Under the pieces are notes generated by a model that saw only the letters and a program-made list of their open reading frames with translations, made no database searches and was not told the DNA's origin. DNA of 20,000 nt from an uncultured virus (IMG/VR IMGVR_UViG_3300027970_000021) (taxonomy: Duplodnaviria > Heunggongvirae > Uroviricota > Caudoviricetes), in the IMG/VR virus record IMGVR_UViG_3300027970_000021, positions 50,061 through 70,060 of that record; one strand, given 5' to 3'. This document shows, piece after piece, positions 6,350-20,000 of the stretch. Positions within the stretch are counted from its first letter, which is position 1. Every line of letters starts with the position of its first letter. Both the position numbers and the translations under genes were made by a program.

Positions 6350-7093
6350 CTATCCCCCGCAGACAGCCATTCTAAACGGATTTTTCGGATCGCGGTAGTA
6401 GCCTTTGACCCAGTTTTCTCGTGGCCCGCGGTTTGTTTCATGCACTTTTATGCAGCCATCAATCCACGCTTTCCCCCACCAGGGGAGCTTCACTTTCCGT
6501 AGGAATTTGATGCGGAGATCAGCCAGCCCCCAGTTTTTTGAGAGCCGCAGCCCTAGCCCCAGCCAGAGAAGCGAGATCGGATCGGGCTCCTCACCTGCTG
6601 CCAGCTCAAGGATTGCCCAGTCACCAGGCTGAAGCATCTCAGTCCACGACCAACGTCCGGGATCGCGGGGGTTGTACTGAAACCAGTGCTTGCGCCCATA
6701 CTCGAGAATCGCCCAGGCATGCCCTGAATTGTAGTGGTGCGAGAGGATTGCAAGCGACACCACGTTGTCGTGCGACTGCCCGATGTCAAGCGGCACGAGG
6801 TCGCCTTCTGCATTCTCAAATCTGAGCTCGTGCCCAGGCCACCGCCCGTGGAGCCCCGGCTCAATCTCAGTCAGCTCCATGTGGCGCTTAAAAGCCAGGA
6901 ACCCTTCCACTGATCTCGCCTCCGGGTCAAGCTCAAGGAGCCCCTGCGCCAGCGCGTAGCTCGCGTTCTCGTTGGTTGAGCGCACAGGATATTTCGGACT
7001 CAACGGGGGAGCTAGGTTGCCCGGCTCATCTTCAAACAAACCCCCGCCATCGGGAGCAATGTAGCGCTCGACGAAGGCGGAGAGGTGGTCCAT
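6350..7093 (-). CDS. Hypothetical protein (247 aa, Trp-rich)
   Basis: Long ORF coupled by TAATG to the tail fiber stop; no family recognised. Confidence 0.7.
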   Translation of the reverse strand: MDHLSAFVERYIAPDGGGLFEDEPGNLAPPLSPKYPVRSTNENASYALAQGLLELDPEARSVEGFLAFKRHMELTEIEPGLHGRWPGHELRFENAEGDLVPLDIGQSHDNVVSLAILSHHYNSGHAWAILEYGRKHWFQYNPRDPGRWSWTEMLQPGDWAILELAAGEEPDPISLLWLGLGLRLSKNWGLADLRIKFLRKVKLPWWGKAWIDGCIKVHETNRGPRENWVKGYYRDPKNPFRMAVCGG

Positions 7094-9942
7094 TAGTTTC
7101 CGACCCTCTCGACGTTGAAATAAGTATTTGCAATAACTCCCGAAATTGTGAGTGTGCTTGCCGAGTTGTTTCCAAGGCCGTATAGGAAGATTTCAACGTA
7201 ATCCCCAGCATTCAACTGAAGCGTCGTGCTTCCATTGAACGCGTTGATTGTCGTTGCGGCAGATGTTCTGTACCCAAACAGACGAGCGGACGCTCCGTTT
7301 TTATATAGGTAAAGCCCGTAATCGGATGCGAGCACGTTCGCGGAGGCAAGTAGGACTGCAGCACTTACGCGATACTTACCTGACACCGGGGCCGTGAACC
7401 GACTATTGCCGGAGCTAAACGATCCAGTTGTATCGAAGACTGCGGAAGAGAAGGCCACCTTAACGAAACTATTGTTCGTTGCTACTCCTGTTTGGTTAGC
7501 CCCTCCAAGTGTTGCATCCATCGCGACTGTCTCACTGGCCGCGATCTGCGATGGGCCGGAGATTCGGGAGATGGAGAAGTAGTTGTCAGCAACACCTCCT
7601 CCGACGTTTAATGCTCCACCTGAGTTTTGGAAGACTTGAATCCCTACCGTGTCCCCTGCGTTAAACAAATATTCTGTTGCACCATTCAAAAACGTACCTG
7701 CAGAAGCCGTAGGGCCGAATATGTATGCCAGTGTCCGGATATTGCTTCCGTTTACACGCAGACGAACCTCACGACCGTTGGTCGAGCTTGCGGCAAAAGC
7801 TACTTGAGTCGTAATCCTATACCAGCCAGGGACTGGAATCGTATAGAGACTTGTACCGGTATTCCAAGCCCCGTGCGTGTCGCTGATTGCGGCGTCGAAA
7901 GCTACCAGTGTTCCGGTACTGTCTGGAATCGACTGAGTGGCTGCGCGGCCTGTAGTCATCGCTACGACGCGAGTGTCCGTCTCAGACGACATCTGCACTT
8001 GAGACGACCATCCGGTGATGGGGACGAGGAAAGATCCGCCAAAAACCGTGTTGTTGGCCCAAGCCGTCCCTAACGTGCCATTGAAATAATTATCTGCCTG
8101 TTGGCTAATGATTGCGACCGTTGTTGGAGAACCTGTGGCTACGAGAATATTGCCTGACCATGGGGTTTTAGATGCGGTAAGCGCCCCCACAACAGAGTTG
8201 TTTACGGCTCTAGTTATGTCCATAGAAAGGCCGCTTGGCAGCGAAATAGAAACTGGTGATCCAGAATTTGTTCCAGAAGTAACTGTAAACATGACTTCAA
8301 GAGAATCACCTACGCGCCGATACTTGGCGATAGATGCAGAAACAGTTCCTAGGCCGACAAATGTAGGAGTGTAGCTCTGCCAATCCGTAACAGGCGTTCC
8401 CTGCGTAATAATTTGAGGCCCGACAACAACATCATCAAATGCTAGTGTGTATGCACTAGTGGACACGCTGCTAACATGAAGAATTAAGCGATAGCTGGTG
8501 CTGTTTGAGGCAGTTTGGAAGGTTCCACGCCATTTACTGCCACCAATGAAATTTTCAATAGAACTTGGTGCTGGCTGAATGAGTGTTGCATTTGTAATAT
8601 CATAAATCCAAACAGTCATGTCGCTTGTAGCAAAGGTTCCGGAGACAACTTCGTAATCAAACGAAATGCTTTGTACTTGTGCTTTGTCAATGGAGGCGAT
8701 TGTGAAGTCATAAGAGACGCCTTGTCCTTGACGGTTCGCGGCATCCTTTACAAAATTAAAATCATAAGCTCCGCGAAGAGGCGTTGTGCTCGAAACGTCC
8801 CATGTTACGGTAGCAATGCCTCCAGTCCCATCAACGGGAGCTGTTCCTGGAGCGTTAGTATATGTGGTCCAGCCGGTAGTAAGGCCAGACTCAGCATCGC
8901 CTTCTAGAACATAATTAACTACTTGCGTCTTATCTAAACGATAAGGAGCAGCACTAGAAGCGTCGTTCTTAAAATAAGGGTGTCCATCAGATCCGGGATA
9001 GAAGCTTCCATAACCAGAAGCAACAGTAGGACCAGTGGTAGGAGTTGAAAGTTCTACCATACGAGCGGCGTCTTCTAAACTAATAAGACCCGTTCCGTTA
9101 GCGTTAATGCTAATATTCCCATTAGTATCCGTGCTAGAAATTTCATTACCATCAACGCGAATGTTATCGACATCTAGCTGCGTAATTCCTGACATGGCTC
9201 CGGCATCATTAAGAGCAACGGTACTACTTTGAATAAAGTTACCAGTCGTTCCATCCCAACGAGCAACGCGGTCATCAACAACAACACCAGAAGCCGCAAT
9301 GCCCCCAGAACCACCGACTACGCGCCATCGTGCGGTTGAATCGTCATATTTAAGAATGACAACACCGCCGTTTTTAAGGGAAATAGTCGAACCGTTTCCA
9401 GTAATAATACGGTTGGCGGCAGAAGGATTTGAATCTTCGTTTGGAATACTAATATCACTGCCGCTAGCATTGATGACATAAAGAACTTTATCTCCGGAAG
9501 CTGCAACAATACCGCGCAACGACGTGACAGCGCCGGTAAGGCGAATCGAACCATAAGTAGCGTTTACAAGAGCGTCAACGTTGCCAGTAGAGGCGTCGTT
9601 TTGGTCAGTGACTACAATACCATTACCGTCTAATAGAAGACCGGACGAGATTACCGTTCCAGAACCATTACGAGCAAGGATTTTATTAGCGTCACCAACT
9701 TCAGTTTTAAGTGAAGATAGTGCAAGATCTTGTACGGTGTTGCTGTCTCCGTCAATCGTTTTATTTGTAAGCGTGGCTGCGTGGGCTTCCGTTACAACCG
9801 GACTAGAAGATGTTCCATTATGATAATTAAGCTTTCCATCTCCGCTAGTGACATCCAAATCACCCTGGTCGTCGGCTGTGGAGGCGGATTCTGGACGAAG
9901 GTTTAAACCCTTCCAAATTTTAGTGAAAACATTGGCAGACAT
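7093..9942 (-). CDS. Tail fiber / receptor-binding protein with two tandem C-terminal C1q-like domains (949 aa)
   Basis: Gly/Ser/Thr-rich beta protein with fiber-type motifs TLTNKTID and LDVDNIRVDGNEISSTDTNGNI. C1q-like signatures occur twice: YTIPVPGWY...FNAGDTV and FTAPVSGKY...LNAGDYVEI. Confidence 0.8.
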   Translation of the reverse strand: MSANVFTKIWKGLNLRPESASTADDQGDLDVTSGDGKLNYHNGTSSSPVVTEAHAATLTNKTIDGDSNTVQDLALSSLKTEVGDANKILARNGSGTVISSGLLLDGNGIVVTDQNDASTGNVDALVNATYGSIRLTGAVTSLRGIVAASGDKVLYVINASGSDISIPNEDSNPSAANRIITGNGSTISLKNGGVVILKYDDSTARWRVVGGSGGIAASGVVVDDRVARWDGTTGNFIQSSTVALNDAGAMSGITQLDVDNIRVDGNEISSTDTNGNISINANGTGLISLEDAARMVELSTPTTGPTVASGYGSFYPGSDGHPYFKNDASSAAPYRLDKTQVVNYVLEGDAESGLTTGWTTYTNAPGTAPVDGTGGIATVTWDVSSTTPLRGAYDFNFVKDAANRQGQGVSYDFTIASIDKAQVQSISFDYEVVSGTFATSDMTVWIYDITNATLIQPAPSSIENFIGGSKWRGTFQTASNSTSYRLILHVSSVSTSAYTLAFDDVVVGPQIITQGTPVTDWQSYTPTFVGLGTVSASIAKYRRVGDSLEVMFTVTSGTNSGSPVSISLPSGLSMDITRAVNNSVVGALTASKTPWSGNILVATGSPTTVAIISQQADNYFNGTLGTAWANNTVFGGSFLVPITGWSSQVQMSSETDTRVVAMTTGRAATQSIPDSTGTLVAFDAAISDTHGAWNTGTSLYTIPVPGWYRITTQVAFAASSTNGREVRLRVNGSNIRTLAYIFGPTASAGTFLNGATEYLFNAGDTVGIQVFQNSGGALNVGGGVADNYFSISRISGPSQIAASETVAMDATLGGANQTGVATNNSFVKVAFSSAVFDTTGSFSSGNSRFTAPVSGKYRVSAAVLLASANVLASDYGLYLYKNGASARLFGYRTSAATTINAFNGSTTLQLNAGDYVEIFLYGLGNNSASTLTISGVIANTYFNVERVGN

Positions 9943-9952
9943 TTATACCCCT

Positions 9953-10447
9953 TTAATCTTGTTGAAGGATAGCTTTTGCGCTAAAAGAAATAGTGCCTGT
10001 ATGGTTGATAGTACCAACGGCAGTTGTAGTGAAAGAAACGGCTCCAGCATCGGAAACTGAAAATTCAATATTGGCTCCAGGGGCCGTGGCCATGCGTGTA
10101 ACCGACCATTTAGAGCCTGATGAATTGTCTGGGTCGTAAACGGCAGTAAACTCACCGGCCTCAGATAGGTGGGTAGTTGGTGAGTCCCCTTCACGATAAA
10201 CAGCATAAGTAACAGTGAAGGCCCGAACTAATAGTACCGGGAATTGTAGAGCCGTAATAGGCTGGTCAGTTACAACGTTATAAGCGTCAATATTAAGTAC
10301 CTGAGGAGGAACGTCATAGGGACCAACAATACCAGAAAGGGCCTGTTCGACTGCTTCGGCGAAAGCAATAATAGCCTCAGACCAATTTGGACTTTCCCCA
10401 GAATCCGGGAATGCGATAGGTGTACCTGAAATAGTAATAATTGGCAT
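9953..10447 (-). CDS. Putative virion structural protein (164 aa)
   Basis: Beta-rich ORF immediately upstream of the tail fiber; no SD seen; preceded by the TTAACAACTAA motif. Confidence 0.7.
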   Translation of the reverse strand: MPIITISGTPIAFPDSGESPNWSEAIIAFAEAVEQALSGIVGPYDVPPQVLNIDAYNVVTDQPITALQFPVLLVRAFTVTYAVYREGDSPTTHLSEAGEFTAVYDPDNSSGSKWSVTRMATAPGANIEFSVSDAGAVSFTTTAVGTINHTGTISFSAKAILQQD

Positions 10448-10451
10448 AACA

Positions 10452-10462
10452 TTAGTTGTTAA
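10452..10462 (-). promoter_or_regulatory. Candidate phage late-promoter motif TTAACAACTAA (copy 1)
   Basis: Exact 11-mer also at 15266-15276. Both copies lie on the - strand upstream of structural genes; this one ends 4 nt before the ATG at 10447. Confidence 0.5.
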
Positions 10463-10486
10463 CCGCCAACTATAAAAGTATAGGGC

Positions 10487-11872
10487 CTATAACGTTTTTA
10501 CATATTTAGCCTGACCGGCATCGTATATCTTATAAAGTCCTAACTCTTTAGCGTATTCTTTCTCGGAAAGCCCCCTGGCGTCCATATTAGCCTTACAATA
10601 CAGTCTATTAAAGGTCTTTACCCCATCTGTCCATTTCCACCCAAGAGTGGTCCCAGAGCGTTTAAATGCGTTCTTTTCTAAAGACTCTCCGGTGGCGTAG
10701 CGAAGGTCAACAAATGAGACGATTTCTCCACCAAAAGCCTCTAAAAACTTGCAGAGCTTAGAAAAGCCACCAATAATGGACGTATTAAGTTCATTTGAAT
10801 AACGAACAATCTCAGAGCCCGTTTTTGTTTCTTTAAAAGTCATGACAGAAACGAGTTTATTATCATAGAAAAGACCGAGGGCTCTGGAAGCTGGACCTTT
10901 CCCCATCAAGTGAGTCCTTTCTAGGAATTCTGAGGCTTCTTTAAACTCGATTTCTTGAAGAGAGCATTTTCGAGCAAAGATTCTTGTATTCGATTTCTTG
11001 ATATTACCAATCATGCTTTGAATAATAAGGGGGCGTTCTTTAATCTCGTCTTGTCGAAATTGTAGAAGCCGCAATCCAACATTTTCATAATCAATTCGTT
11101 TATTAATGTGATATTTATTATCTTTCTTGTATAAATCTGAATGGTAAATTAATCCATCAACGTCAATATATGTATCCTCTGATAGTTTAAAGTCCGGCTT
11201 GTATTTCAGATCATCGCAAATCTTTTTATTAAAAGATGGAAGATTTTCTATGGTCTTTTGGAATTGCGTTTCTAGGATTGATTTGTACGATTTATGATTC
11301 TCAATCCAATCTTCTGTGGCTTCAATTCCATGCTCTTTTAAATAACGATAAATAAGACAAACTGGGACATCCTTTTCTTTCGAAATTTCGTGCGCATTTT
11401 TGCCCGAAAACACCGGCCTTGCATTAATTTTGCCCGGATTATTAACTCCGTATTTCTTAAGAAGCCCGGCGCGTGCCTTTTCAGTCTGAACATGCTTCCA
11501 ATCAGCCCCATAACGGGACACATTTGTCTTCTTCACTTTATCACGAAGCTCAGGACTCTTTAAAGCGTTCTCAACACCATAACGCGACAGCATAGTGGAA
11601 CGAAACTTCTCTTTGTATTCCGGAAGTTGGGAATTATTAACTACTCCGTATTTAGAAAGCATCGTTTTGGTGCGGTTTTCGTTTTTCCTATCGGGATGCG
11701 TGCTTTGCGCCGCAATTTGAAGATATTTAAGGGAAGTTTCAAACTCACCGTACAAAATGTCAATGAATTTTTGTTTCTTAGTTTTTGGGGCTGAAAGATC
11801 TGTAGAAGAATGGACAATGACATTCTCGGGAAGCCAATCCCTAGGCTTTGATTTATCAATTTTATTTTTCAT
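10487..11872 (-). CDS. Free-standing Hef-like putative homing endonuclease (KYGV repeats, Vsr-like PD-(D/E)XK nuclease, GNAT-like C-terminal domain; 461 aa)
   Basis: Four (K/R)YG(V/A) repeats; YKPDF...IDVDGLIYHS...YHINK...LLQFRQDE nuclease motif; C-terminal RIFARKC...HLMG...VMTF...RY...GGFSKL...SFVDLRY...IYDAG block. AT-rich, with its own promoter. Confidence 0.75.
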   Translation of the reverse strand: MKNKIDKSKPRDWLPENVIVHSSTDLSAPKTKKQKFIDILYGEFETSLKYLQIAAQSTHPDRKNENRTKTMLSKYGVVNNSQLPEYKEKFRSTMLSRYGVENALKSPELRDKVKKTNVSRYGADWKHVQTEKARAGLLKKYGVNNPGKINARPVFSGKNAHEISKEKDVPVCLIYRYLKEHGIEATEDWIENHKSYKSILETQFQKTIENLPSFNKKICDDLKYKPDFKLSEDTYIDVDGLIYHSDLYKKDNKYHINKRIDYENVGLRLLQFRQDEIKERPLIIQSMIGNIKKSNTRIFARKCSLQEIEFKEASEFLERTHLMGKGPASRALGLFYDNKLVSVMTFKETKTGSEIVRYSNELNTSIIGGFSKLCKFLEAFGGEIVSFVDLRYATGESLEKNAFKRSGTTLGWKWTDGVKTFNRLYCKANMDARGLSEKEYAKELGLYKIYDAGQAKYVKTL

Positions 11873-11878
11873 AATGAA

Positions 11879-11908
11879 ATTATAACACAGAACACACTAT
11901 TCTGTCAA
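11879..11908 (-). promoter_or_regulatory. Consensus sigma70 promoter for the free-standing endonuclease, probably leaderless
   Basis: TTGACA (11908-11903), 18-nt spacer ending in TGT, TATAAT (11884-11879), then 6 nt to the ATG at 11872; no SD. Confidence 0.85.
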
Positions 11909-11923
11909 GCTCCATTTAAAGAC

Positions 11924-11958
11924 AAAAAGAAGGCCCGAGTATTTCTACCCAGGCCTCC
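11924..11958 (-). terminator. Rho-independent terminator of the major capsid gene
   Basis: GGAGGCCTGGGTA-GAAA-TACTCGGGCCTTC hairpin followed by TTTTT, about 20 nt after the capsid stop. Confidence 0.9.
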
Positions 11959-11980
11959 AAATCTAAACAGCTACGGCTGC

Positions 11981-13030
11981 TTATACGGGGTTAACAATTG
12001 CGTAGATGAGCGTGCTCTTACCAGGAGCGGAGCAGAAGAGGGCCTGATCGCTCCAAAGGCGAAGCTCAAATCCGGCGCTCTCAGAGAGATGGCGGAAGAA
12101 CTCGTCTTTTTGGCCGGGAAGAGTGAAGGTCATGTCAGAACTACCGACACGGCTCCAGTCATCGAGGCTTAGGAGGTAAGAGTAGCCTTCTTTGACATAG
12201 ATCGAGGGTTCGATTTCAATGTCACCATTCTGTGAATGGAAGAGGATGCTCTTGCTACCGTTCTCAACTTTAGCAGCGCTGTATGACGAATCATACTTAC
12301 GGAGAGCCGCTTGGTCGGAAAGGAGTGAACTCCAGGTACGGGGGTTGACGTAGCAAATTACTTTGCTGTCAAGGCCCTTTTCTACTGCACGAGCAACGGC
12401 GTTGTTAAGCTTGGGGAAGCTAAGAGCGCCAGAGCTAGCAGAGTATTCGTTACCCTTGAAGAGGTTGTAGGTAGCGGTGTCGATGTTGAACAACGTACCA
12501 GTTGAGGTTAGGATCTTATGTACGCCAGGGAATTCGTTACCGTAAGCGCCTTTGTGCCAGATTACGTCGGTGGCAACTACGCCAGCGGCACCAGCAGAGG
12601 TCTTAAGGGTAACTACGCGAGTGTCCATGTTGACGTTCTTAACAGAGAATTCTCCGCGAGAAACGGCACCAGAGGCATCACGAATTTCGATAGGCATGTT
12701 CTCAGCACCGGCCCAGATACCAGGAGCCCACTCGGCAGTGGTGATCGTGATATCAGCAGCAGAGACGCTAGCAACGGTGGCGTAACCAACTTGACCGTAG
12801 AACATTTCGATCTCTAGCTTTTTGGCTAGTGAACGGAGCATGTTCGCTACAAGATACTTGGTGGCGTCCATGAAGGCTTGAGCCGTACCTTGTGAAGCAC
12901 GCGAAGCGGCAGAATAACCAAGGACAGAACGCATGAGGATAGGGTTCCCACGGATCTGAGCGTCCTTGATTACGCCAGCGACGGCGGGGTTAAGGTTGAA
13001 CGCATCTTCGTCAGAAGCGGCGAAAGTAAC
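11981..13030 (-). CDS. Major capsid protein, exon 3 (349 aa; spliced gene = join of 14639-14574, 13670-13533, 13030-11981; 417 aa)
   Basis: Downstream of portal and scaffold, followed by a strong terminator, and capsid-like in size and sequence (LAKKLEIEMFYG, GVHKIL...LFNID). The ATG at 13033 is the last 3 nt of intron 2. Confidence 0.85.
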   Translation of the reverse strand, partial: VTFAASDEDAFNLNPAVAGVIKDAQIRGNPILMRSVLGYSAASRASQGTAQAFMDATKYLVANMLRSLAKKLEIEMFYGQVGYATVASVSAADITITTAEWAPGIWAGAENMPIEIRDASGAVSRGEFSVKNVNMDTRVVTLKTSAGAAGVVATDVIWHKGAYGNEFPGVHKILTSTGTLFNIDTATYNLFKGNEYSASSGALSFPKLNNAVARAVEKGLDSKVICYVNPRTWSSLLSDQAALRKYDSSYSAAKVENGSKSILFHSQNGDIEIEPSIYVKEGYSYLLSLDDWSRVGSSDMTFTLPGQKDEFFRHLSESAGFELRLWSDQALFCSAPGKSTLIYAIVNPV

Positions 13031-13139
13031 CATTTTGTTATCGTAAGGGCTCTTTATCCCCTACTTCTTATAGTTTCCTATAAGTTCAGACTATCTTTTC
13101 AGAAGCCATGAGCTTCTGTCGGTGACTCGTGGGAATATT

Positions 13140-13460
13140 CTATTCCGCTTTCGCGGGTTCAATTCCTAGTCGTTGCGCGTGTGAAGAACTTTTAAGTCCA
13201 ACACTTCCGCTCTGATTGGCATATTCAGATAGATAGAAAAACTTCCACCCTAAGCTACTTTTTCTCCTGCCTGTATTTTTACAGATTTCCTCAACAGTAA
13301 AGTTTTCTTTTCCATAGCTTCGGATAGCATTAGAAATATGACGATTACGTTTTTCTACACAATGAGAATTAAAGCGACGAGAAACTGAGCCAGTTGTTTG
13401 ACCAACATACTCTTTTCCGTTCACATTATTCTTAATTTTGTAGATTATTCCGTATCTCAT
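13140..13460 (-). pseudogene. Intron-encoded GIY-YIG homing endonuclease, internally deleted (106 aa)
   Basis: GIIY...YVGQT...RR...H motif is present, but after FTVEEI the ORF jumps to CKNTGRRKSSLGWKFFY (NUMOD1/HTH-end-like). The helix with the catalytic Glu and the GYN motif are missing. The 3' end overlaps the intron core. Confidence 0.75.
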
Positions 13461-13466
13461 ATATCT

Positions 13467-13495
13467 ATCCTATCACATCTAACTTAGCTTTCCAA
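13467..13495 (-). promoter_or_regulatory. Possible sigma70 promoter for the GIY-YIG ORF inside intron 2
   Basis: TTGGAA (13495-13490), 17-nt spacer ending in TGA, TAGGAT (13472-13467), then 6 nt to the ATG at 13460. The AGGA could alternatively be an SD. Confidence 0.45.
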
Positions 13496-13532
13496 GTTTT
13501 TTCACCAATTTATTAGCACGGCATTAAACTTT

Positions 13533-13670
13533 ACCGTGCTCCATCCCCAAAATAACTGGCTGATGGTACAAATTGCCAGGCATCTTGGATTTCTCCATGA
13601 ATGCCACGCGATTTACTAGCTTTACGCCATCCGGAATAAGTTCTTTAAGCTTATTCGCATAAGTTTCTTT
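13533..13670 (-). CDS. Major capsid protein, exon 2 (46 aa; not in the ORF track)
   Basis: 138 nt between the two introns reading KETYANKLKELIPDGVKLVNRVAFMEKSKMPGNLYHQPVILGMEHG; in frame with exons 1 and 3 at the predicted splice sites. Confidence 0.88.
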
Positions 13671-14573
13671 CGAACTGTTTGCTCCAATTACTTGGAGTGT
13701 CGGACTATATCATCTGGCTTATTGCCAGCCGCGCGCTGTAAAATTCTGAATTGATAAACTTGCTCAATATATCTAAATTTATGTTGCATACTTTTAAGTC
13801 CAAGAACCGTGTCTCGGATTGTATGCCATATCTTTAAGGAGTCTTTTTCCGTAAAGGCTAGGAATGGATAGGTTTTAGATGTCCTTTTATCATTCATAAA
13901 CCTAACTTTGGGCTTTACTCCAAGCTGTGTTTCAAACCATTTGATTAATACATCATAATCTGAAATAGATTCGCTATATGTAAAGATTCTAAACCTTGCA
14001 CTCTTCGTGGTCTTTACTCCATGGATCATTTGGAATCCACTAGTCTCAACATATCCGTCATCCATAAGCCACACTGCTGCGGCAAACTCCGGATGCTTTA
14101 AAAAAGGAAGGATTTTTATAATCTCCTTTTTTCCATTGGGATATGTAAACTTTCTCCATGCTCTGAGACGCTTCCAACAAACTTGGAATTGTACAGATTT
14201 CCCTTTATGTCCTTGTCTAACTTTAACGTTTCTACCAGTTATGGATGAAACGATTTGAGCTTTCCAGGCAACATAATCGGCTTGGGAAGTTCCGTGGTCA
14301 ATCGAAAGACCGCCATAGACTGATCCCGCATTTTTTATATAGTGCAGACATCCGTCTCCCAAAACCATGGATAGGATAAGACTTCTTTTATCTTTATTAA
14401 GCATTTTATTCTCCAACTCGCTATGCGATCAGGATTATTCTAAATTTTTAGTCTCTGGACCTTGCTCTTCTAGAGAGCCTTGGCTGCTGATTGTCCCGTA
14501 GGATTTCCAGCAATTCACGCAGTTTTACAAGCTTTCGCTTGTCGGGGGTTTACCCGACCTCTTCAAATTAACT
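13671..14573 (-). mobile_element. Group I self-splicing intron 1 in the major capsid gene (903 nt, IA-like)
   Basis: P1: exon CCTCTTT pairs with GAAGAGG, with U-G at the splice site. P3 CTGCGTG/CGCGCGG; P4/P5 AATTGCTGGAAA-TCCTACGGGA-CAATCAGCAGCC; P6a GCTCT/AGAGC; P7 GACTA/TAGTC; P8 CTGGC/GCCAG; P9 CTCCAA-GTAA-TTGGAG; terminal G at 13671. Removal restores NGLF|KETY. Confidence 0.93.
13688..14404 (-). CDS. Intron-encoded double-motif LAGLIDADG homing endonuclease (238 aa)
   Basis: Motifs LILSMVLGDG and AAAVWLMDDG, plus HGTSQADYVAWK (LAGLIDADG_2, I-SceI-like pattern). A GGAG SD precedes the ATG at 14404. The stop lies in the P9 loop of the intron. Confidence 0.88.
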   Translation of the reverse strand: MLNKDKRSLILSMVLGDGCLHYIKNAGSVYGGLSIDHGTSQADYVAWKAQIVSSITGRNVKVRQGHKGKSVQFQVCWKRLRAWRKFTYPNGKKEIIKILPFLKHPEFAAAVWLMDDGYVETSGFQMIHGVKTTKSARFRIFTYSESISDYDVLIKWFETQLGVKPKVRFMNDKRTSKTYPFLAFTEKDSLKIWHTIRDTVLGLKSMQHKFRYIEQVYQFRILQRAAGNKPDDIVRHSK

Positions 14574-14639
14574 AAAGAGGCCGTTAAGGTTGCCAACCGT
14601 ATTGTTTGGCGTACCAAAAGTATTAACTGAAGTAGACAT
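14574..14639 (-). CDS. Major capsid protein, exon 1 (22 aa; not in the ORF track)
   Basis: AGGAG SD (14654-14650), then ATG 14639, reading MSTSVNTFGTPNNTVGNLNGLF. An in-frame TAA follows one codon into the intron. Confidence 0.88.
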
Positions 14640-14668
14640 TTGTTATTTTCTCCTATTTATTAAGTTTA

Positions 14669-15145
14669 TTAAGCGTCTTCTGCAACAACGTACTCTAGCT
14701 CTAGGCAGAGTTGACGGGTTCCAGAGGTTAGAGCTAGGCCAGAATCGACGTTTAGTACAATCTTATCCAAAGCACCGCCAGCGACAATGCCGCTTGCTGG
14801 AGCTGAGGGAAGAGTGCATGTAACTAGGTCGGCAGAGCTAAGGCACGATACCTTAGCAGAGACAACCTTTTCGACTTGTTCTTGGATGCGGACGAGAACT
14901 GAGAAAATCCCAGTTGCGTCGGCAGCACTTGCTAGCGTAGGAACGGTGTCGTCAGAATTTAGGGCACCTGAGGCGACCGTAATATTGTCGATACCTTCTA
15001 CAGCCAAGAACAGGAGCGAGGGCTCGTCGCTAGTAAGAACTTTAGCGGCGGGGGTAGCACTACCAACGATCTGGAAAGGGATGGATACCTTCTGGACCTT
15101 TAGTTGGCGGCTGCGAACTTGTGAATCTTTTGATTCGTATGCCAT
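14669..15145 (-). CDS. Putative head decoration / minor capsid protein (158 aa)
   Basis: Ala/Ser/Val-rich ORF with an AAGGA SD, located between scaffold and capsid genes. Function inferred from position only. Confidence 0.55.
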   Translation of the reverse strand: MAYESKDSQVRSRQLKVQKVSIPFQIVGSATPAAKVLTSDEPSLLFLAVEGIDNITVASGALNSDDTVPTLASAADATGIFSVLVRIQEQVEKVVSAKVSCLSSADLVTCTLPSAPASGIVAGGALDKIVLNVDSGLALTSGTRQLCLELEYVVAEDA

Positions 15146-15189
15146 TTGTTTTTCCTTTTATATAATAATGTTGTGTTGTTGCTTTTTTC

Positions 15190-15262
15190 TTGACATGCCT
15201 CTAGATATTTGGTATTCTTTCGCCTAAGGGTAGAAAGAAGCCGCTTATTATAAGCCTATCAA
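15190..15262 (-). ncRNA. Candidate structured cis-regulatory RNA in the 5' leader of the decoration/capsid operon
   Basis: Outer stem TTGATAGGC/GCATGTCAA; inner perfect stem TTCTTTC/GAAAGAA; its loop CCTTAG can pair with downstream CTAGAGG (pseudoknot-like). Confidence 0.4.
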
Positions 15263-15265
15263 TAG

Positions 15266-15276
15266 TTAGTTGTTAA
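15266..15276 (-). promoter_or_regulatory. Candidate phage late-promoter motif TTAACAACTAA (copy 2)
   Basis: Exact repeat of 10452-10462; overlaps the scaffold stop codon and directly precedes the structured leader. Confidence 0.5.
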
Positions 15277-16271
15277 ATTTTGAAGAAATCTTTATAAGAA
15301 ACCTTCTTGTCTTCTTGATTTTCCTTTTGACCCGTTTTAGCCGTCTCCTTTACGGCACTTTTAAACGGCGTGGGGGGCATTTGGGCCTTTTTAGCCGCTA
15401 CAGTCTGTTTACGGATCTTATTAAGTGTATCTTTTCCGACAATGCCCTCAATAACTTCTAAAGGCATAGATCCAAACATAGCACGGGTATCGTTAATAAA
15501 CTCATCCCGTACCAAAGGAATTACTTCCTCAGGACTTACGTCGATATCGTTCTCAATAGCAAGCATCATCCAGTCAGCAATACGTTTAATAGTATACGGA
15601 GACTTAGGAATGTCTGATTTGGCTAGGGCCGCGTCAAGTTGTGAGTCGTAACGTTGGAAAGCCTGTTCTTCTAGCATTTCACGACGCTTAGCCTCACCAT
15701 CTTTCTTTTCTTTTTCACGTTCATCACGAAGAGCTTTAAGTTCTTGTTCAAGTTTTTCACGTTCTAGCTGTTCAGGTGACTTTTTGGCATTTTCAATTTC
15801 ACGTTCAATGACTTGTTGTGCAAGTTTCTTAATATCAATACCGAGAGAGGGGTCGCTTAGTACCTGCTCCGGATTATTACGAAGAACTTCTAGGAATTCA
15901 TTGACATCGCGCTCAAGTTTTGCGTGTTCTTGATATCTTTTATGCGAAGACTTTGACATTTGGAGCTGTTTACGCATATAATCCACAGATTTAGCGTCAT
16001 CAGGGATTTCAAATGGCAATTCTTCGTCATATTCAACACCATCTACCTTAATTTTAAGGGTTTTTAAGCGTTTGGCTTCGCTTTTAGTGAGCTTTTCTTT
16101 ACTTTCTAGCTTTTTAAGATCTTTTTCTTCGCTAGATGAAAGCGCTTGTTGCTCTTCACCACCAGGTTCGTTCTCTAGACCTTCATTTGAAAGCTCAGGA
16201 ACTTCAGTTTCCGATGGTTCTTGGCTATTTTGTGGTGCCGGGGCGGATTGTGTGGACATTTCGTCTGACAT
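15273..16271 (-). CDS. Capsid scaffolding protein (332 aa)
   Basis: Acidic disordered N-terminus, KIKVDGVEYDEE motif, long charged coiled coils and a basic C-terminus; AAGGAG SD; upstream of the capsid gene. Confidence 0.8.
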   Translation of the reverse strand: MSDEMSTQSAPAPQNSQEPSETEVPELSNEGLENEPGGEEQQALSSSEEKDLKKLESKEKLTKSEAKRLKTLKIKVDGVEYDEELPFEIPDDAKSVDYMRKQLQMSKSSHKRYQEHAKLERDVNEFLEVLRNNPEQVLSDPSLGIDIKKLAQQVIEREIENAKKSPEQLEREKLEQELKALRDEREKEKKDGEAKRREMLEEQAFQRYDSQLDAALAKSDIPKSPYTIKRIADWMMLAIENDIDVSPEEVIPLVRDEFINDTRAMFGSMPLEVIEGIVGKDTLNKIRKQTVAAKKAQMPPTPFKSAVKETAKTGQKENQEDKKVSYKDFFKI

Positions 16272-16345
16272 ATATTCTCCTTGTTGCGTCCCATTTGGGA
16301 TAGCTACGGTTAGCGAATGCGTAATTGCGTATCGCTTATATAATA

Positions 16346-16837
16346 TTATTTTTTAAGGGCTTTAAATTTACGACCACGGTCGCTTTTTTCTACTTTTTCC
16401 TTAGGCGGAACCTTATTATGTCCATATTGCCACATATAAGCTGCCTGCTCTTCTGTTGGCTTTTGTCTTTTAATCATCCGAAGTAGGTTTAAAGCCGATT
16501 CTTGCTCTAAATCTGGATTTTTCTTTACTTCTTCTAGTTGTTGATCTGCAGGTAGACCTTTAATACTGCGAAGTTCGGGTGAAGCAATGCCCATACGTGG
16601 TGAAACTTTGGTAATCTGCTCAATAGTATTGGGCATTAAACCAAAAGTTCCATATGCCGAGTCTCCGGAATGGATACTATTTGGGGATTGAATCTCGTCA
16701 TGAGCCATATCCTTCCCTCCACTAGATTCGAGCATTGCGATTTTATCTAAAAGTGCTTGTTCTTCGGGCGAAGCGTCATAATATTCTCGACGCTTCGGTC
16801 CAACGTCCTCTGGATTTTTCTTTAGTTTATTACCCAT
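16346..16837 (-). CDS. Lytic transglycosylase / lysozyme-like protein (163 aa)
   Basis: IAMLESSGG (catalytic Glu motif), SAYGTFGLMP and AYMWQYG match the three SLT motifs. Likely start is ATG 16837, overlapping the end of the upstream gene. Confidence 0.72.
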   Translation of the reverse strand: MGNKLKKNPEDVGPKRREYYDASPEEQALLDKIAMLESSGGKDMAHDEIQSPNSIHSGDSAYGTFGLMPNTIEQITKVSPRMGIASPELRSIKGLPADQQLEEVKKNPDLEQESALNLLRMIKRQKPTEEQAAYMWQYGHNKVPPKEKVEKSDRGRKFKALKK

Positions 16838-18603: not shown

Positions 18604-20000
18604 TTATTTTAAGTTGTTTAGACCGGCTTCTTGAAGCGCGGGATTTGGTAATAGTGATGGGTCTACTTTGGGAATATTAGGCATGTTTTCAGATCCACCT
18701 GGACCACTAACATTCTGACCAGCAACCTGAGGCCCACCAGCCGGAACTAATAGCTCATCAACGGATGTTGCGGGTTGGTTTGGTTGGGGAGCACCGCCAG
18801 GAGGCATTGATCCCGGAGGACCCATAGCCCCGGCAGGGGGTAGAGGCTGTTGGCCTAATAGGATAAGCAAGTCAGGATCAACAACACGCAGAGCATCAAG
18901 GTGGGCTTCTAGGTGATCCATTACAGTCTTAACAAGATCGACGTTCTTACGAAGGTCCGGGTCGGCTAATACAGCACGATGTTCTGAAATATGTAGACGG
19001 TGGTCGTCTGTTGGAGCAACAAGAACAACGTCACCATTCATGAGCCTTTCATTTTCAGACTTAATAAGAAGAAGTTCATTCACTTCTCCTTCAAACGTCA
19101 TATCAAGACGGCCAGTATTGATTACGTTAAAATATTGCTGAGGATTTTTAATTAGGCTCATCTGAGCAAGTTGCTCCGCCATCTGTACGCGACCAGCTAC
19201 GGTGCGCGATAAAGGATTTCCAACGTCAACAATAACGCGGTTTACGTCGGTAATATCATCGCCCGTAAATTCTTTTAGAAGAGGACGATTATTTTTACCA
19301 ACAAGCGCTACAATTTTAGGGGATTTCGCGTAGTCTTTAAGAATATTAATAAGACCAGTACCAACATCTTCAATCAGCTTTACATAGCTTTGTTGAAGGC
19401 CTGACATGAATTGTAAAGACATGCTCTGAACAAGCGCTAGAGCCGCACCAGACTCTAGACTGGCTTGAGGATTCCCACGGGACACAGAGTTAACTCCCGA
19501 AATGGTTTCGGCTGACTGAACTAACATGTCAACAAACTTAAAAATTTCGGCAGGAGTCTCTGTGAGATTCAGGGCCTCAGGTTTAATACTTGATTGGATA
19601 ATGTTCATACCACCTTCAAGCTGACCAGTAATGACATCGGAACCGTGAGGCATCCAGATGTTCTGTACGCCAAACGTGTTTTGGTTTGTCATGATGGTAC
19701 TAAACAATGAGTTAATACCTTCTTGAATTGGGAACACGTCAAACATTGAGGTATAAGCATAAGGAGTTCCAATAATCTCGGCAGCCGCAATACGAAAAAC
19801 GGGAACCGTGCGGTATGGGAGCTTCGTGTCTAATAGGATAATATCGTCAGCCAAGAACAGCATATACCGACCGTCAGGAAGGGCCTCGGACTTTTTATGG
19901 TAAAATTCATATACGGGGATATCGTCAGTTTCATCGTTAGACCAAAGCGCAAGACGGAAATTTGCGTATTGCGTTTTAGTTTGTAGTCCTTTGATCTTTT
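18604..20000 (-). CDS. Portal protein, C-terminal part (gene starts beyond the window)
   Basis: The frame is open from 19998 (DDIPVYEFYHKK...PDGRY) through QEGINSL...ETISGVNSVSRG...SGAALAL, resembling podovirus portals. It has a Pro/Gly/Gln-rich tail and lies upstream of scaffold and capsid. Confidence 0.85.
   Translation of the reverse strand, partial: KIKGLQTKTQYANFRLALWSNDETDDIPVYEFYHKKSEALPDGRYMLFLADDIILLDTKLPYRTVPVFRIAAAEIIGTPYAYTSMFDVFPIQEGINSLFSTIMTNQNTFGVQNIWMPHGSDVITGQLEGGMNIIQSSIKPEALNLTETPAEIFKFVDMLVQSAETISGVNSVSRGNPQASLESGAALALVQSMSLQFMSGLQQSYVKLIEDVGTGLINILKDYAKSPKIVALVGKNNRPLLKEFTGDDITDVNRVIVDVGNPLSRTVAGRVQMAEQLAQMSLIKNPQQYFNVINTGRLDMTFEGEVNELLLIKSENERLMNGDVVLVAPTDDHRLHISEHRAVLADPDLRKNVDLVKTVMDHLEAHLDALRVVDPDLLILLGQQPLPPAGAMGPPGSMPPGGAPQPNQPATSVDELLVPAGGPQVAGQNVSGPGGSENMPNIPKVDPSLLPNPALQEAGLNNLK

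Follow-up and report, generated by a model that had tools for sequence, protein, structure and literature searches.

Organization of the capsid locus

The window analysed here is a stretch of 20,000 nucleotides (nt), bases 50061-70060 of the 70,060-bp IMG/VR record IMGVR_UViG_3300027970_000021, and belongs to an uncultured lake phage. On its minus strand the gene of the major capsid protein is interrupted by two group I introns. Intron 1 carries a LAGLIDADG homing endonuclease gene that looks intact, intron 2 the remnant of a GIY-YIG gene, and a free-standing homing endonuclease gene of the Hef type follows the capsid gene. The locus is probably a homing-endonuclease island of independent elements, in which intron 2 hitch-hikes by co-conversion. 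The features concerned are the following (aa, amino acids; ORF, open reading frame):

14574-14639, minus strand, capsid exon 1 (66 nt, 22 codons, ATG at 14639)
13671-14573, minus strand, group I intron 1 at site F|K (903 nt, between the F and K codons)
13688-14404, minus strand, LAGLIDADG homing endonuclease ORF in intron 1 (238 aa from ATG; start in the ORF list TTG 14416)
13533-13670, minus strand, capsid exon 2 (138 nt, 46 codons, KETYANKL...GMEHG)
13031-13532, minus strand, group I intron 2 at site HG|V (502 nt, between the G and V codons)
13140-13460, minus strand, GIY-YIG remnant in intron 2 (106-aa ORF, internally deleted)
11981-13030, minus strand, capsid exon 3 (349 codons and stop)
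11929-11958, minus strand, intrinsic terminator 3' of the capsid stop (13-pair stem with 7 G-C pairs, then TTTTTGTCTT)
11879-11908, minus strand, consensus sigma-70 promoter of the free-standing gene (TTGACA, 18-nt spacer, TATAAT, 12/12)
10487-11872, minus strand, Hef-type homing endonuclease gene (461 aa, free-standing)

The exon borders (14639-14574, 13670-13533 and 13030-11981) are fixed by intronless relatives, in which the corresponding protein stretch runs unbroken (...LNG[LFM]F-KE[TAV]YA...GNLYHQPVILG[LM]EHG-[VI]TFA...). Removal of both introns restores the junctions NGLF|KETYA and MEHG|VTFA as they are found in these relatives, and the spliced major capsid protein has 417 aa. Exon 3 matched the PHROG major head protein (E 7e-10). 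An AGGAG ribosome-binding site is located 10 nt 5' of the capsid ATG, and the distance between the two intron insertion sites is 138 nt.

For both introns a P1 pairing could be read from the sequence. In intron 1 it is formed by CCUCUUU/GAAGAGG with the U.G pair at 14574, in intron 2 by AGCACGGU/GCCGUGCU with the U.G pair at 13533; the last intron base is G in either case (13671 and 13031). The Rfam model RF00028, with a gathering score of 50, gave 43.1 bits (14348-14583) and 21.5 bits (13681-13966) for intron 1 and 30.0 bits for intron 2, and in the whole genome these two introns were the only group I matches. Relatives are referred to in the following by the L-numbers of their loci; the window, L004 and L129 represent the same phage. 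An ORF-less homologue of intron 2, located at the same site in L019, scored 50.3 bits and hence reached the gathering score. The ribozyme core of intron 2 could be aligned closely to that of L019 and also to those of L005 and L039. By these sequence features both interruptions of the capsid gene are real group I introns, presumably removed by splicing.

The 3' end of intron 2 (13023-13099, core 13031-13068) resembles unannotated stretches of Clostridioides, Staphylococcus and gut phages (89-95 % over 55-74 nt). A megablast search of 9900-16400 against phage records returned only matches of 55-74 nt, all of them to this 3' core. In four lake metagenomes the core showed a depth of 10-73, compared with 1-6 in its flanks, with loose ends leading into other sequence. 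The 3' segment looks like an intron module that many sequences share. A like pattern was seen at 14479-14518 in intron 1.

Endonuclease genes of the introns

The ORF of intron 1 was assigned to Pfam LAGLIDADG_2 with 47.1 bits (E 3.2e-12, cut-off 25). Both LAGLIDADG motifs with their acidic residues (G16-D17-G18 and D115-D116; GDG and DDG) were kept in all five aligned homologues, and identities of 56, 47 and 41 % were found to the proteins of L025, L176 and L135, respectively. Judged by its sequence, the gene looks like an intact and working double-motif member of this family. Within the 30-nt stretch around its intron site, relatives differ from the window at 5-12 positions.

The ORF of intron 2 reached 28.8 bits with Pfam GIY-YIG, but the match covers positions 2-54 of the 78 profile positions only. 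Compared with the 218-aa ORF of L005 and the 219-aa ORF of L039, it is shorter by about 330 nt (about 110 codons), lost from the middle. What is retained are about 59 N-terminal residues and a tail, which overlaps the ribozyme core. A complete catalytic domain together with a DNA-binding domain is no longer present, and from its reading frame the gene is a defunct remnant. Several statements of the original prediction are thereby borne out: endonuclease genes of three families beside the capsid gene, each found where it had been placed on the minus strand; a LAGLIDADG gene in intron 1, now with a Pfam score above cut-off and both motifs invariant; a degenerate GIY-YIG gene in intron 2, by which this intron's own gene is defunct; and insertion sites 138 nt apart.

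The introns of the window and L019 and the homologous GIY-YIG introns of L005 and L039 are inserted 2 nt apart, after GGT and after GT of the next codon, respectively. The internal guide sequences differ accordingly (GCCGUGC versus GCCCC); the stretches compared were L005:5121-5160, L039:5125-5160, window 13533 and L019:2694-2730. Intron sliding or independent insertion may have caused this offset.

The free-standing Hef-type cassette

The capsid stop is followed by the intrinsic terminator and the sigma-70 promoter, in which TG precedes the -10 box (extended -10). The ATG of the Hef-type gene (11872) lies 6 nt past the -10 box and has no Shine-Dalgarno sequence, which suggests that the mRNA is leaderless or near-leaderless. 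The gene is present as a single copy in the 70-kb genome. With a terminator and a promoter preceding it, the claim of a free-standing Hef-like gene after the capsid terminator was confirmed.

Three parts were distinguished in the 461-aa protein: N-terminal DUF7487 repeats, a Vsr-like EDxHD nuclease domain (residues 195-295, approximately) and a Mom-like GNAT domain (296-461). The whole protein matched the PHROG 'homing endonuclease' phrog_3339 (E 8e-52). Because the matches to the whole-protein model (Foldseek, VIA-align) showed the GNAT domain only, the nuclease domain was modelled alone, with a predicted local distance difference test score (pLDDT) of 85. The best match to this model was the catalytic domain of I-Bth0305I (3r3p; Z 9.8, root mean square deviation 3.4, 94 of 98 residues aligned), followed by 3hrl and Vsr (1cw0, Z 8.6). 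In Foldseek 3r3p also ranked first (E 2.9e-3), as it did when the family profile was compared with the PDB sequences (E 0.023). Among 40 family members the residues E201 (39), D227 (40), D239 (40), H244 (40), D275 (36) and E276 (39) were conserved. In I-Bth0305I, the active-site residues are E170, D196, H213 and D222.

No match was obtained for the whole protein against PDB by sequence (E up to 10) or against NCBIfam, and none for the nuclease domain alone against Pfam (E up to 10). A literature text search found no mention of 'DUF7487'. By tblastn, 404 phage records were found with the 461-aa protein, of which 45 rows were sampled. Among the sampled rows, those of RaK2, Acj9, PC5, VP-1 and PAC2 were annotated as 'hef' or 'Hef-like homing endonuclease', with 23-37 % identity. 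These annotated proteins of cultured phages align to the last residues of the window protein. Taylor et al. (2011, PMC3239194) placed Hef-type endonucleases in the Vsr-like family, and nrdB was reported as the cleavage target of Hef, a homing endonuclease of phage U5 (PMC2988022). The label 'Hef-like' is right in view of this family placement and of the alignments to annotated Hef-like proteins. Of the original description as a PD-(D/E)XK Hef-like gene, fold and label thus stand, the fold being narrowed to the Vsr-like 'EDxHD' branch, whereas the C-terminal GNAT domain had been missed. The gene is, on the evidence of homology, a free-standing and optional Hef-type EDxHD gene between conserved genes, with a predicted nuclease activity.

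For the GNAT domain the best Foldseek match was phage Mu Mom (8bv8, E 3e-6), and GNAT structures were matched with Z 13. Pfam Mom (PF25680) reached 17.8 bits for residues 296-461, which is under the cut-off of 27.1; hence the tail is termed Mom-like and not a Mom member. With hhalign, Mom R111, S124, D149 and R151 correspond to R357, S371, D389 and R391 of the window protein, at a probability of just 3.8 % with a single-sequence template. These four positions are kept in 40, 31, 40 and 39 of 40 family members, respectively. The four Mom residues were reported as important for Mom activity (PMC13219725). In jumbo phages, Mom domains fused to restriction-fold nucleases were described, with a predicted modify-and-cut role (PMC7824862). 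It is possible that the Mom-like domain gives a self-protecting modification.

Introns in related capsid genes

Scans with capsid exon 3 yielded 46 loci in IMG/VR and 53 loci in JGI metagenomes, with identities of 57-100 %. The loci were collapsed at >=95 % nt identity to 78 clusters; the N-terminus could be read in 76. Interrupted capsid alleles were detected in 14 of these 76, each with one to three introns. About ten intron positions were found, all in the first ~95 of the 417 codons and none in the other ~320. They are located after NGLF, near KEA, after QPG, after NLYH, after HQP, after ILG, after EHG, two nt further (after GT of the Val codon), after DEDA and after NAPVAG. The splice sites are exact to the base for the window, L005, L019 and L039, and are given at codon resolution for the other relatives. 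The ORFs in the introns of relatives were of the LAGLIDADG, GIY-YIG or HNH-NUMOD type, or no ORF was present.

The LAGLIDADG intron at F|K was also found in L025, L135 and L176, the contigs of which end before the slot behind the capsid gene; in L176 it was the sole intron detected. The HG|V intron of L019/20 is ORF-less, and the slot of these loci is empty. In L005 and L039/45 a relative of the HG|V intron is found at the +2 position and carries a full GIY-YIG gene; the slot of L039/45 holds a GIY-YIG gene as well. Each of the seven introns that are ORF-less or degenerate has, across 14-138 nt of exon, a neighbouring intron in which the endonuclease gene is full-length. Such a full-length gene is present at least once in each of the 14 interrupted alleles, and alleles with ORF-less introns only were not seen (0/14). 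The exact combination of intron 1, intron 2 and Hef-type gene was detected in this phage only (window, L004 and L129).

In the capsid region L005:4050-5997 three introns are present, and the micro-exons between them measure 18 nt and ~14 nt (the 12 nt of MEHG plus GT). No recognisable ORF was seen in its first intron (832 nt).

The slot behind the capsid gene and its occupants

The downstream border of the slot is formed by a conserved gene, homologues of which are located 3' of the capsid gene in relatives:

9953-10447, minus strand, conserved 164-aa gene, downstream border of the variable slot

Between the capsid stop and this gene, relatives have 98 nt to 5.1 kb. Slot content was classified for 56 clusters, in the metagenome set by tblastn to a query panel and not by Pfam: 6 contained a Hef-like gene, 11 an EndoVII-type gene, 4 a fusion of EndoVII and Mom-like domains, 7 a GIY-YIG gene and 10 an ORF of ~277 aa, and in 18 nothing was recognised (spacer <=220 nt in 12 of the 18). 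By PHROG name the EndoVII-type slot genes belong to the family of F-CphI. An interrupted capsid gene was found in 6 of 28 clusters with any recognised nuclease gene in the slot and in 4 of 28 without (p = 0.73). The 448-aa protein encoded in the slot of L007 (2972-4318) joins Mom and nuclease in a further way, with a strong N-terminal Mom domain (Pfam E 6e-33), a GIY-YIG domain and a zinc module resembling that of EndoVII. The ~277-aa ORF (L016:7177-8010, L017, L018, L024 and six metagenome clusters) is conserved and without Pfam or PHROG match; it represents either a mobile gene that has escaped recognition or a structural gene specific to a lineage.

As evidence of mobility, three near-isogenic pairs differ only by such an element. 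L014 has two introns and L139 none, at 95-97 % identity. L040 carries a 652-nt insert with an EndoVII-type gene where L164 has 14 nt, with 98 % identity upstream. L044 has a 695-nt insert where L042 has 69 nt, at 99.8 % identity. In the comparison of L040 and L164 the identity is 98.1 % upstream of the EndoVII-type insertion and 95.7 % downstream; this drop may mark a co-conversion tract. For the window phage itself no plus/minus variant was found in IMG/VR, the metagenome scans or the reads, where the spliced-junction sequence was not among the searches. The layout of reads from four runs (88 % likeness) gave short contigs of low depth, none of which joined across either intron or the Hef-type gene. 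A read joint from 13714 to 14014 was disregarded, as its shorter side comprised 20 nt only.

On the capsid tree, which is a quick tree, Hef-like genes and interrupted alleles are scattered. The six Hef rows need five changes, not fewer than label shuffles.

Genomic context

Upstream of the capsid gene the order is portal, scaffold-like gene, 158-aa ORF and capsid, and a fibre-like gene is located beyond the 164-aa gene:

18604-19863, minus strand, portal gene
15273-16271, minus strand, scaffold-like gene
between the scaffold-like gene and the capsid gene, minus strand, conserved 158-aa ORF
7093-9942, minus strand, gene of a 949-aa fibre-like protein (C-terminal BclA_C and C1q-type domains, two)

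CheckV rated the 70,060-bp record as 100 % complete. The same phage (100 % identity in capsid and Hef-type gene) was found within the longer contigs L129 (124,122 bp) and L051 (104,527 bp). These longer contigs may be concatemers or chimeras; otherwise the record of 70 kb, despite its rating, does not cover the entire genome. Twelve public runs with the stretch were listed, all of them lake-water metagenome DNA and none on record as RNA. The G+C content (GC) of the genome shows two regimes, ~53-59 % (~56 %) at roughly 20-57 kb and ~38-47 % (~42 %) elsewhere. Introns and endonuclease genes have 35-41 % GC, and capsid exon 3 stands out in the low-GC region with 51-53 %.

Interpretation of the locus

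We assign a probability of about 0.68 to the reading of the locus as a homing-endonuclease island of independent elements with hitch-hiking of intron 2 by co-conversion. Three selfish elements would have been acquired separately at the major capsid gene. The LAGLIDADG enzyme of intron 1 presumably cuts intronless capsid alleles at or near F|K, and repair would copy the intron in. Intron 2 is probably no longer self-mobile, because its own GIY-YIG gene lacks the ~110 internal codons, and any spread would be passive; it must still splice, because the capsid protein needs its removal. Co-conversion of intron 2 would occur when a LAGLIDADG break (trans homing) or, less probably, a Hef-type break is repaired from this genome. 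The slot cassette with its own promoter would behave as a free-standing element of 'intronless homing'.

We directly observed the anatomy of the locus, the families of its genes, the internal loss in the GIY-YIG ORF, a distribution among relatives that is patchy and mixed, and the plus/minus polymorphism of introns and slot genes between near-identical relatives. From intron 2 the LAGLIDADG gene is separated by 138 nt of exon and the Hef-type gene by ~1.1 kb. Both are inside a range of ~2 kb, the length that co-conversion tracts reach in T4 (PMC2790892). The location of all seven ORF-less or degenerate introns near a full endonuclease gene is as hitch-hiking by co-conversion predicts. Among relatives the elements assort separately, which argues against a co-adapted or obligate three-way system. 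By the refuting condition of the original prediction, an independent distribution of the three elements, an obligate system of all three is not supported by the survey, in which different combinations were found and the trio in one phage only. The co-conversion that had been proposed for intron 2 fared better: the defunct gene, the intact neighbours in range and the pattern in seven of seven introns agree with it, but a conversion trace was not detected.

Several points weigh against this reading. The exon identity near the sites was not raised in the intron-sharing relatives (L025, L176, L135 and L019) over that in others, in a comparison of 111 nt after F|K and 150 nt after HG|V, where at 57-73 % identity a trace is hard to see. 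In the IMG/VR and metagenome scans no relative with a capsid identity between 79 % and 100 % was present, and hence the order of acquisition and the history of the trio are unreadable. Both introns of the window score below the Rfam gathering score, since long ORF insertions interrupt the model. Cleavage activities, cleavage sites, splicing and co-conversion are what we infer and do not observe. Finally, interrupted capsids were more frequent with a Hef-like gene in the slot (4 of 6) than with other slots (6 of 50; Fisher p = 0.007, a post hoc test with six carriers, uncorrected for relatedness). This enrichment exceeds strict independence and leaves room for a functional link.

One such link would be S-PM2-type collaborative homing. 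In that case the Hef-type enzyme would recognise uninterrupted capsid sequence across an intron site, most plausibly HG|V with its dead endonuclease gene, while the intron protects its own genome by splitting the site; the cut in intronless rivals would drive in the intron and, with a long tract, also the Hef-type gene. The arrangement is that of the precedent, an intron without a working endonuclease beside a free-standing endonuclease gene (PMC6083498, PMC10448857). The four interrupted capsids with Hef-like genes (window, L014, L027 and L133) belong to four separate branches of the capsid tree. Furthermore, the L027-type Hef subfamily has five carriers, and in three of them (L014, L027 and L133) introns are found at H|Q or LG|L, two sites separated by 18 nt. 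Nevertheless, two of the six Hef-positive alleles (L033 and L142) are uninterrupted, and the introns of L014, L027 and L133 occupy other sites than those of the window. The other five Hef-like proteins of the slot share just 23-31 % identity with that of the window. Introns of the HG|V type occur without a Hef-like gene in L019/20, with an empty slot, and in L039/45, with a GIY-YIG gene. Moreover, every Hef-positive interrupted allele has its own intron-encoded full-length endonuclease gene; thus no intron there needs the Hef-like enzyme. Together with the post hoc character of the statistic, this makes collaborative homing unlikely.

As a second alternative, the 461-aa protein could be a one-gene modify-and-cut system rather than mainly a homing element. 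The Mom-like domain would modify the phage's own adenines, and unmodified DNA, from the host or a co-infecting phage, would be the target of the nuclease. The position at the capsid gene would then be incidental. The conserved counterparts of the four key Mom residues are consistent with this function, which was predicted for the Mom-nuclease fusions of jumbo phages (PMC7824862). But the distribution is that of a homing gene, sporadic in a slot that otherwise holds other nuclease families or is empty, and two contigs of the IMG/VR scan hold two Hef-type copies each. Binding to specific DNA sites is suggested by the long repeat arm at the N-terminus, and the Hef of U5 is the reported nrdB-cleaving homing endonuclease (PMC2988022). 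The low hhalign probability and the Pfam Mom score under cut-off also speak against it. We regard a modify-and-cut system as improbable.

The original prediction had also considered the locus as a weapon of phage against phage. Precedent for this idea is given in PMC11620839, and marker exclusion in PMC2988022. In such a reading the first ~300 nt of the capsid gene would be a battleground, where Hef-type enzymes cut in rivals and introns shield the sites; the intronless Hef-positive phages might be protected by adenine modification through the Mom-like domain. If true, it would explain both the ~10 intron positions in ~95 codons and the association of Hef-like genes with introns. We consider this a speculative and rather improbable extension.

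An assembly artefact, i.e. a chimeric metagenome contig joining elements of different phages, could be suspected from the two GC regimes and from the tail of intron 2 (13031-13068), which is common to many sequences in the same metagenomes and could mislead an assembler, but is very improbable, as the same arrangement occurs in the independent records L004 and L129 (protein identity 100 % for capsid exons and Hef-type, >=99 % for intron ORFs), 10 of the 12 listed runs hold at least half of the sampled words of 11900-14700 (8 hold >=0.97), single contigs span 13039-13598 and 13582-14552, and the exon junctions give back the conserved protein.

The homing-endonuclease island proposed here is of a kind already known, with trans homing, collaborative homing, HEG-islands (HEG, homing endonuclease gene) and Hef-type enzymes as described cases. 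What is new is a map, across the clade, of where introns are inserted and what occupies the slot, together with a modest association of Hef-like genes with introns. The locus shows a strong focus of selfish endonuclease genes on the capsid gene in uncultured freshwater phages, where the slot is filled by at least four nuclease architectures and near-isogenic plus/minus pairs are supplied for study. With dead, live and free-standing endonuclease genes within 4 kb on an essential gene, it lends itself to measurements of how far a non-autonomous intron is carried by linkage alone. Its value is that of a well-documented example with testable substrates and not of a new principle.

Comparison with known systems

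In phage T4, MobE trans-homes the nrdB intron with the defunct I-TevIII (Wilson and Edgell 2009, PMC2790892). As in that case, an intron with a broken endonuclease gene lies within co-conversion distance of intact genes, and its persistence by linkage would be expected. In contrast to MobE, the nearest intact enzyme is encoded here in another intron, 138 nt off, with the free-standing gene ~1.1 kb further, and the system is known from sequence alone.

The psbA intron of S-PM2 with the free-standing F-CphI (Zeng et al. 2009, cited in PMC6083498) and the T3/T7-like examples cited in PMC10448857 share with the window a free-standing endonuclease gene adjoining an intron-bearing essential gene. 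The original prediction had named S-PM2 as precedent, and this holds for the arrangement. It does not hold for the family, since F-CphI is an Endo VII-motif enzyme (PMC6083498) and the window enzyme is of the Hef type (EDxHD). In addition, S-PM2 has a single ORF-less intron, whereas two introns are present here, and the endonuclease gene of one of them is intact.

Barth et al. (2023, PMC10448857) described 'HEG-islands' that bracket essential phage genes, capsid genes included. Endonuclease genes of several families on and around the capsid gene, split genes and a patchy distribution are common to both. The families differ: T5orf172 and IPA-HNH were the main ones in the cultured phages of that work, whereas the clade of uncultured lake phages studied here has LAGLIDADG, GIY-YIG and Hef-type genes. 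Also in contrast to that work, ~10 intron positions are packed into ~95 codons. A comparable density is known from orf142 of Staphylococcus phage Twort, a late gene with several group I introns close together and very short exons. In the lake phages, the diversity of introns is instead spread over the clade, and each phage has its own set of sites.

With the Hef/EDxHD enzymes, represented by I-Bth0305I (3r3p), the 461-aa protein shares the Vsr-like fold, and with Hef the free-standing position between conserved genes; acidic and histidine residues are near-invariant in its family. I-Bth0305I is intron-encoded, has NUMOD repeats and comprises 266 residues by the numbering of the paper (PMC3239194), in contrast to the free-standing window protein of 461 aa. 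Like phage Mu Mom (8bv8), the C-terminal domain has a GNAT fold with counterparts of four key residues, but Hef-type proteins are not known to modify DNA. It differs from Mom in its Pfam score, which is under the cut-off, and in its length of 166 compared with 231 aa.

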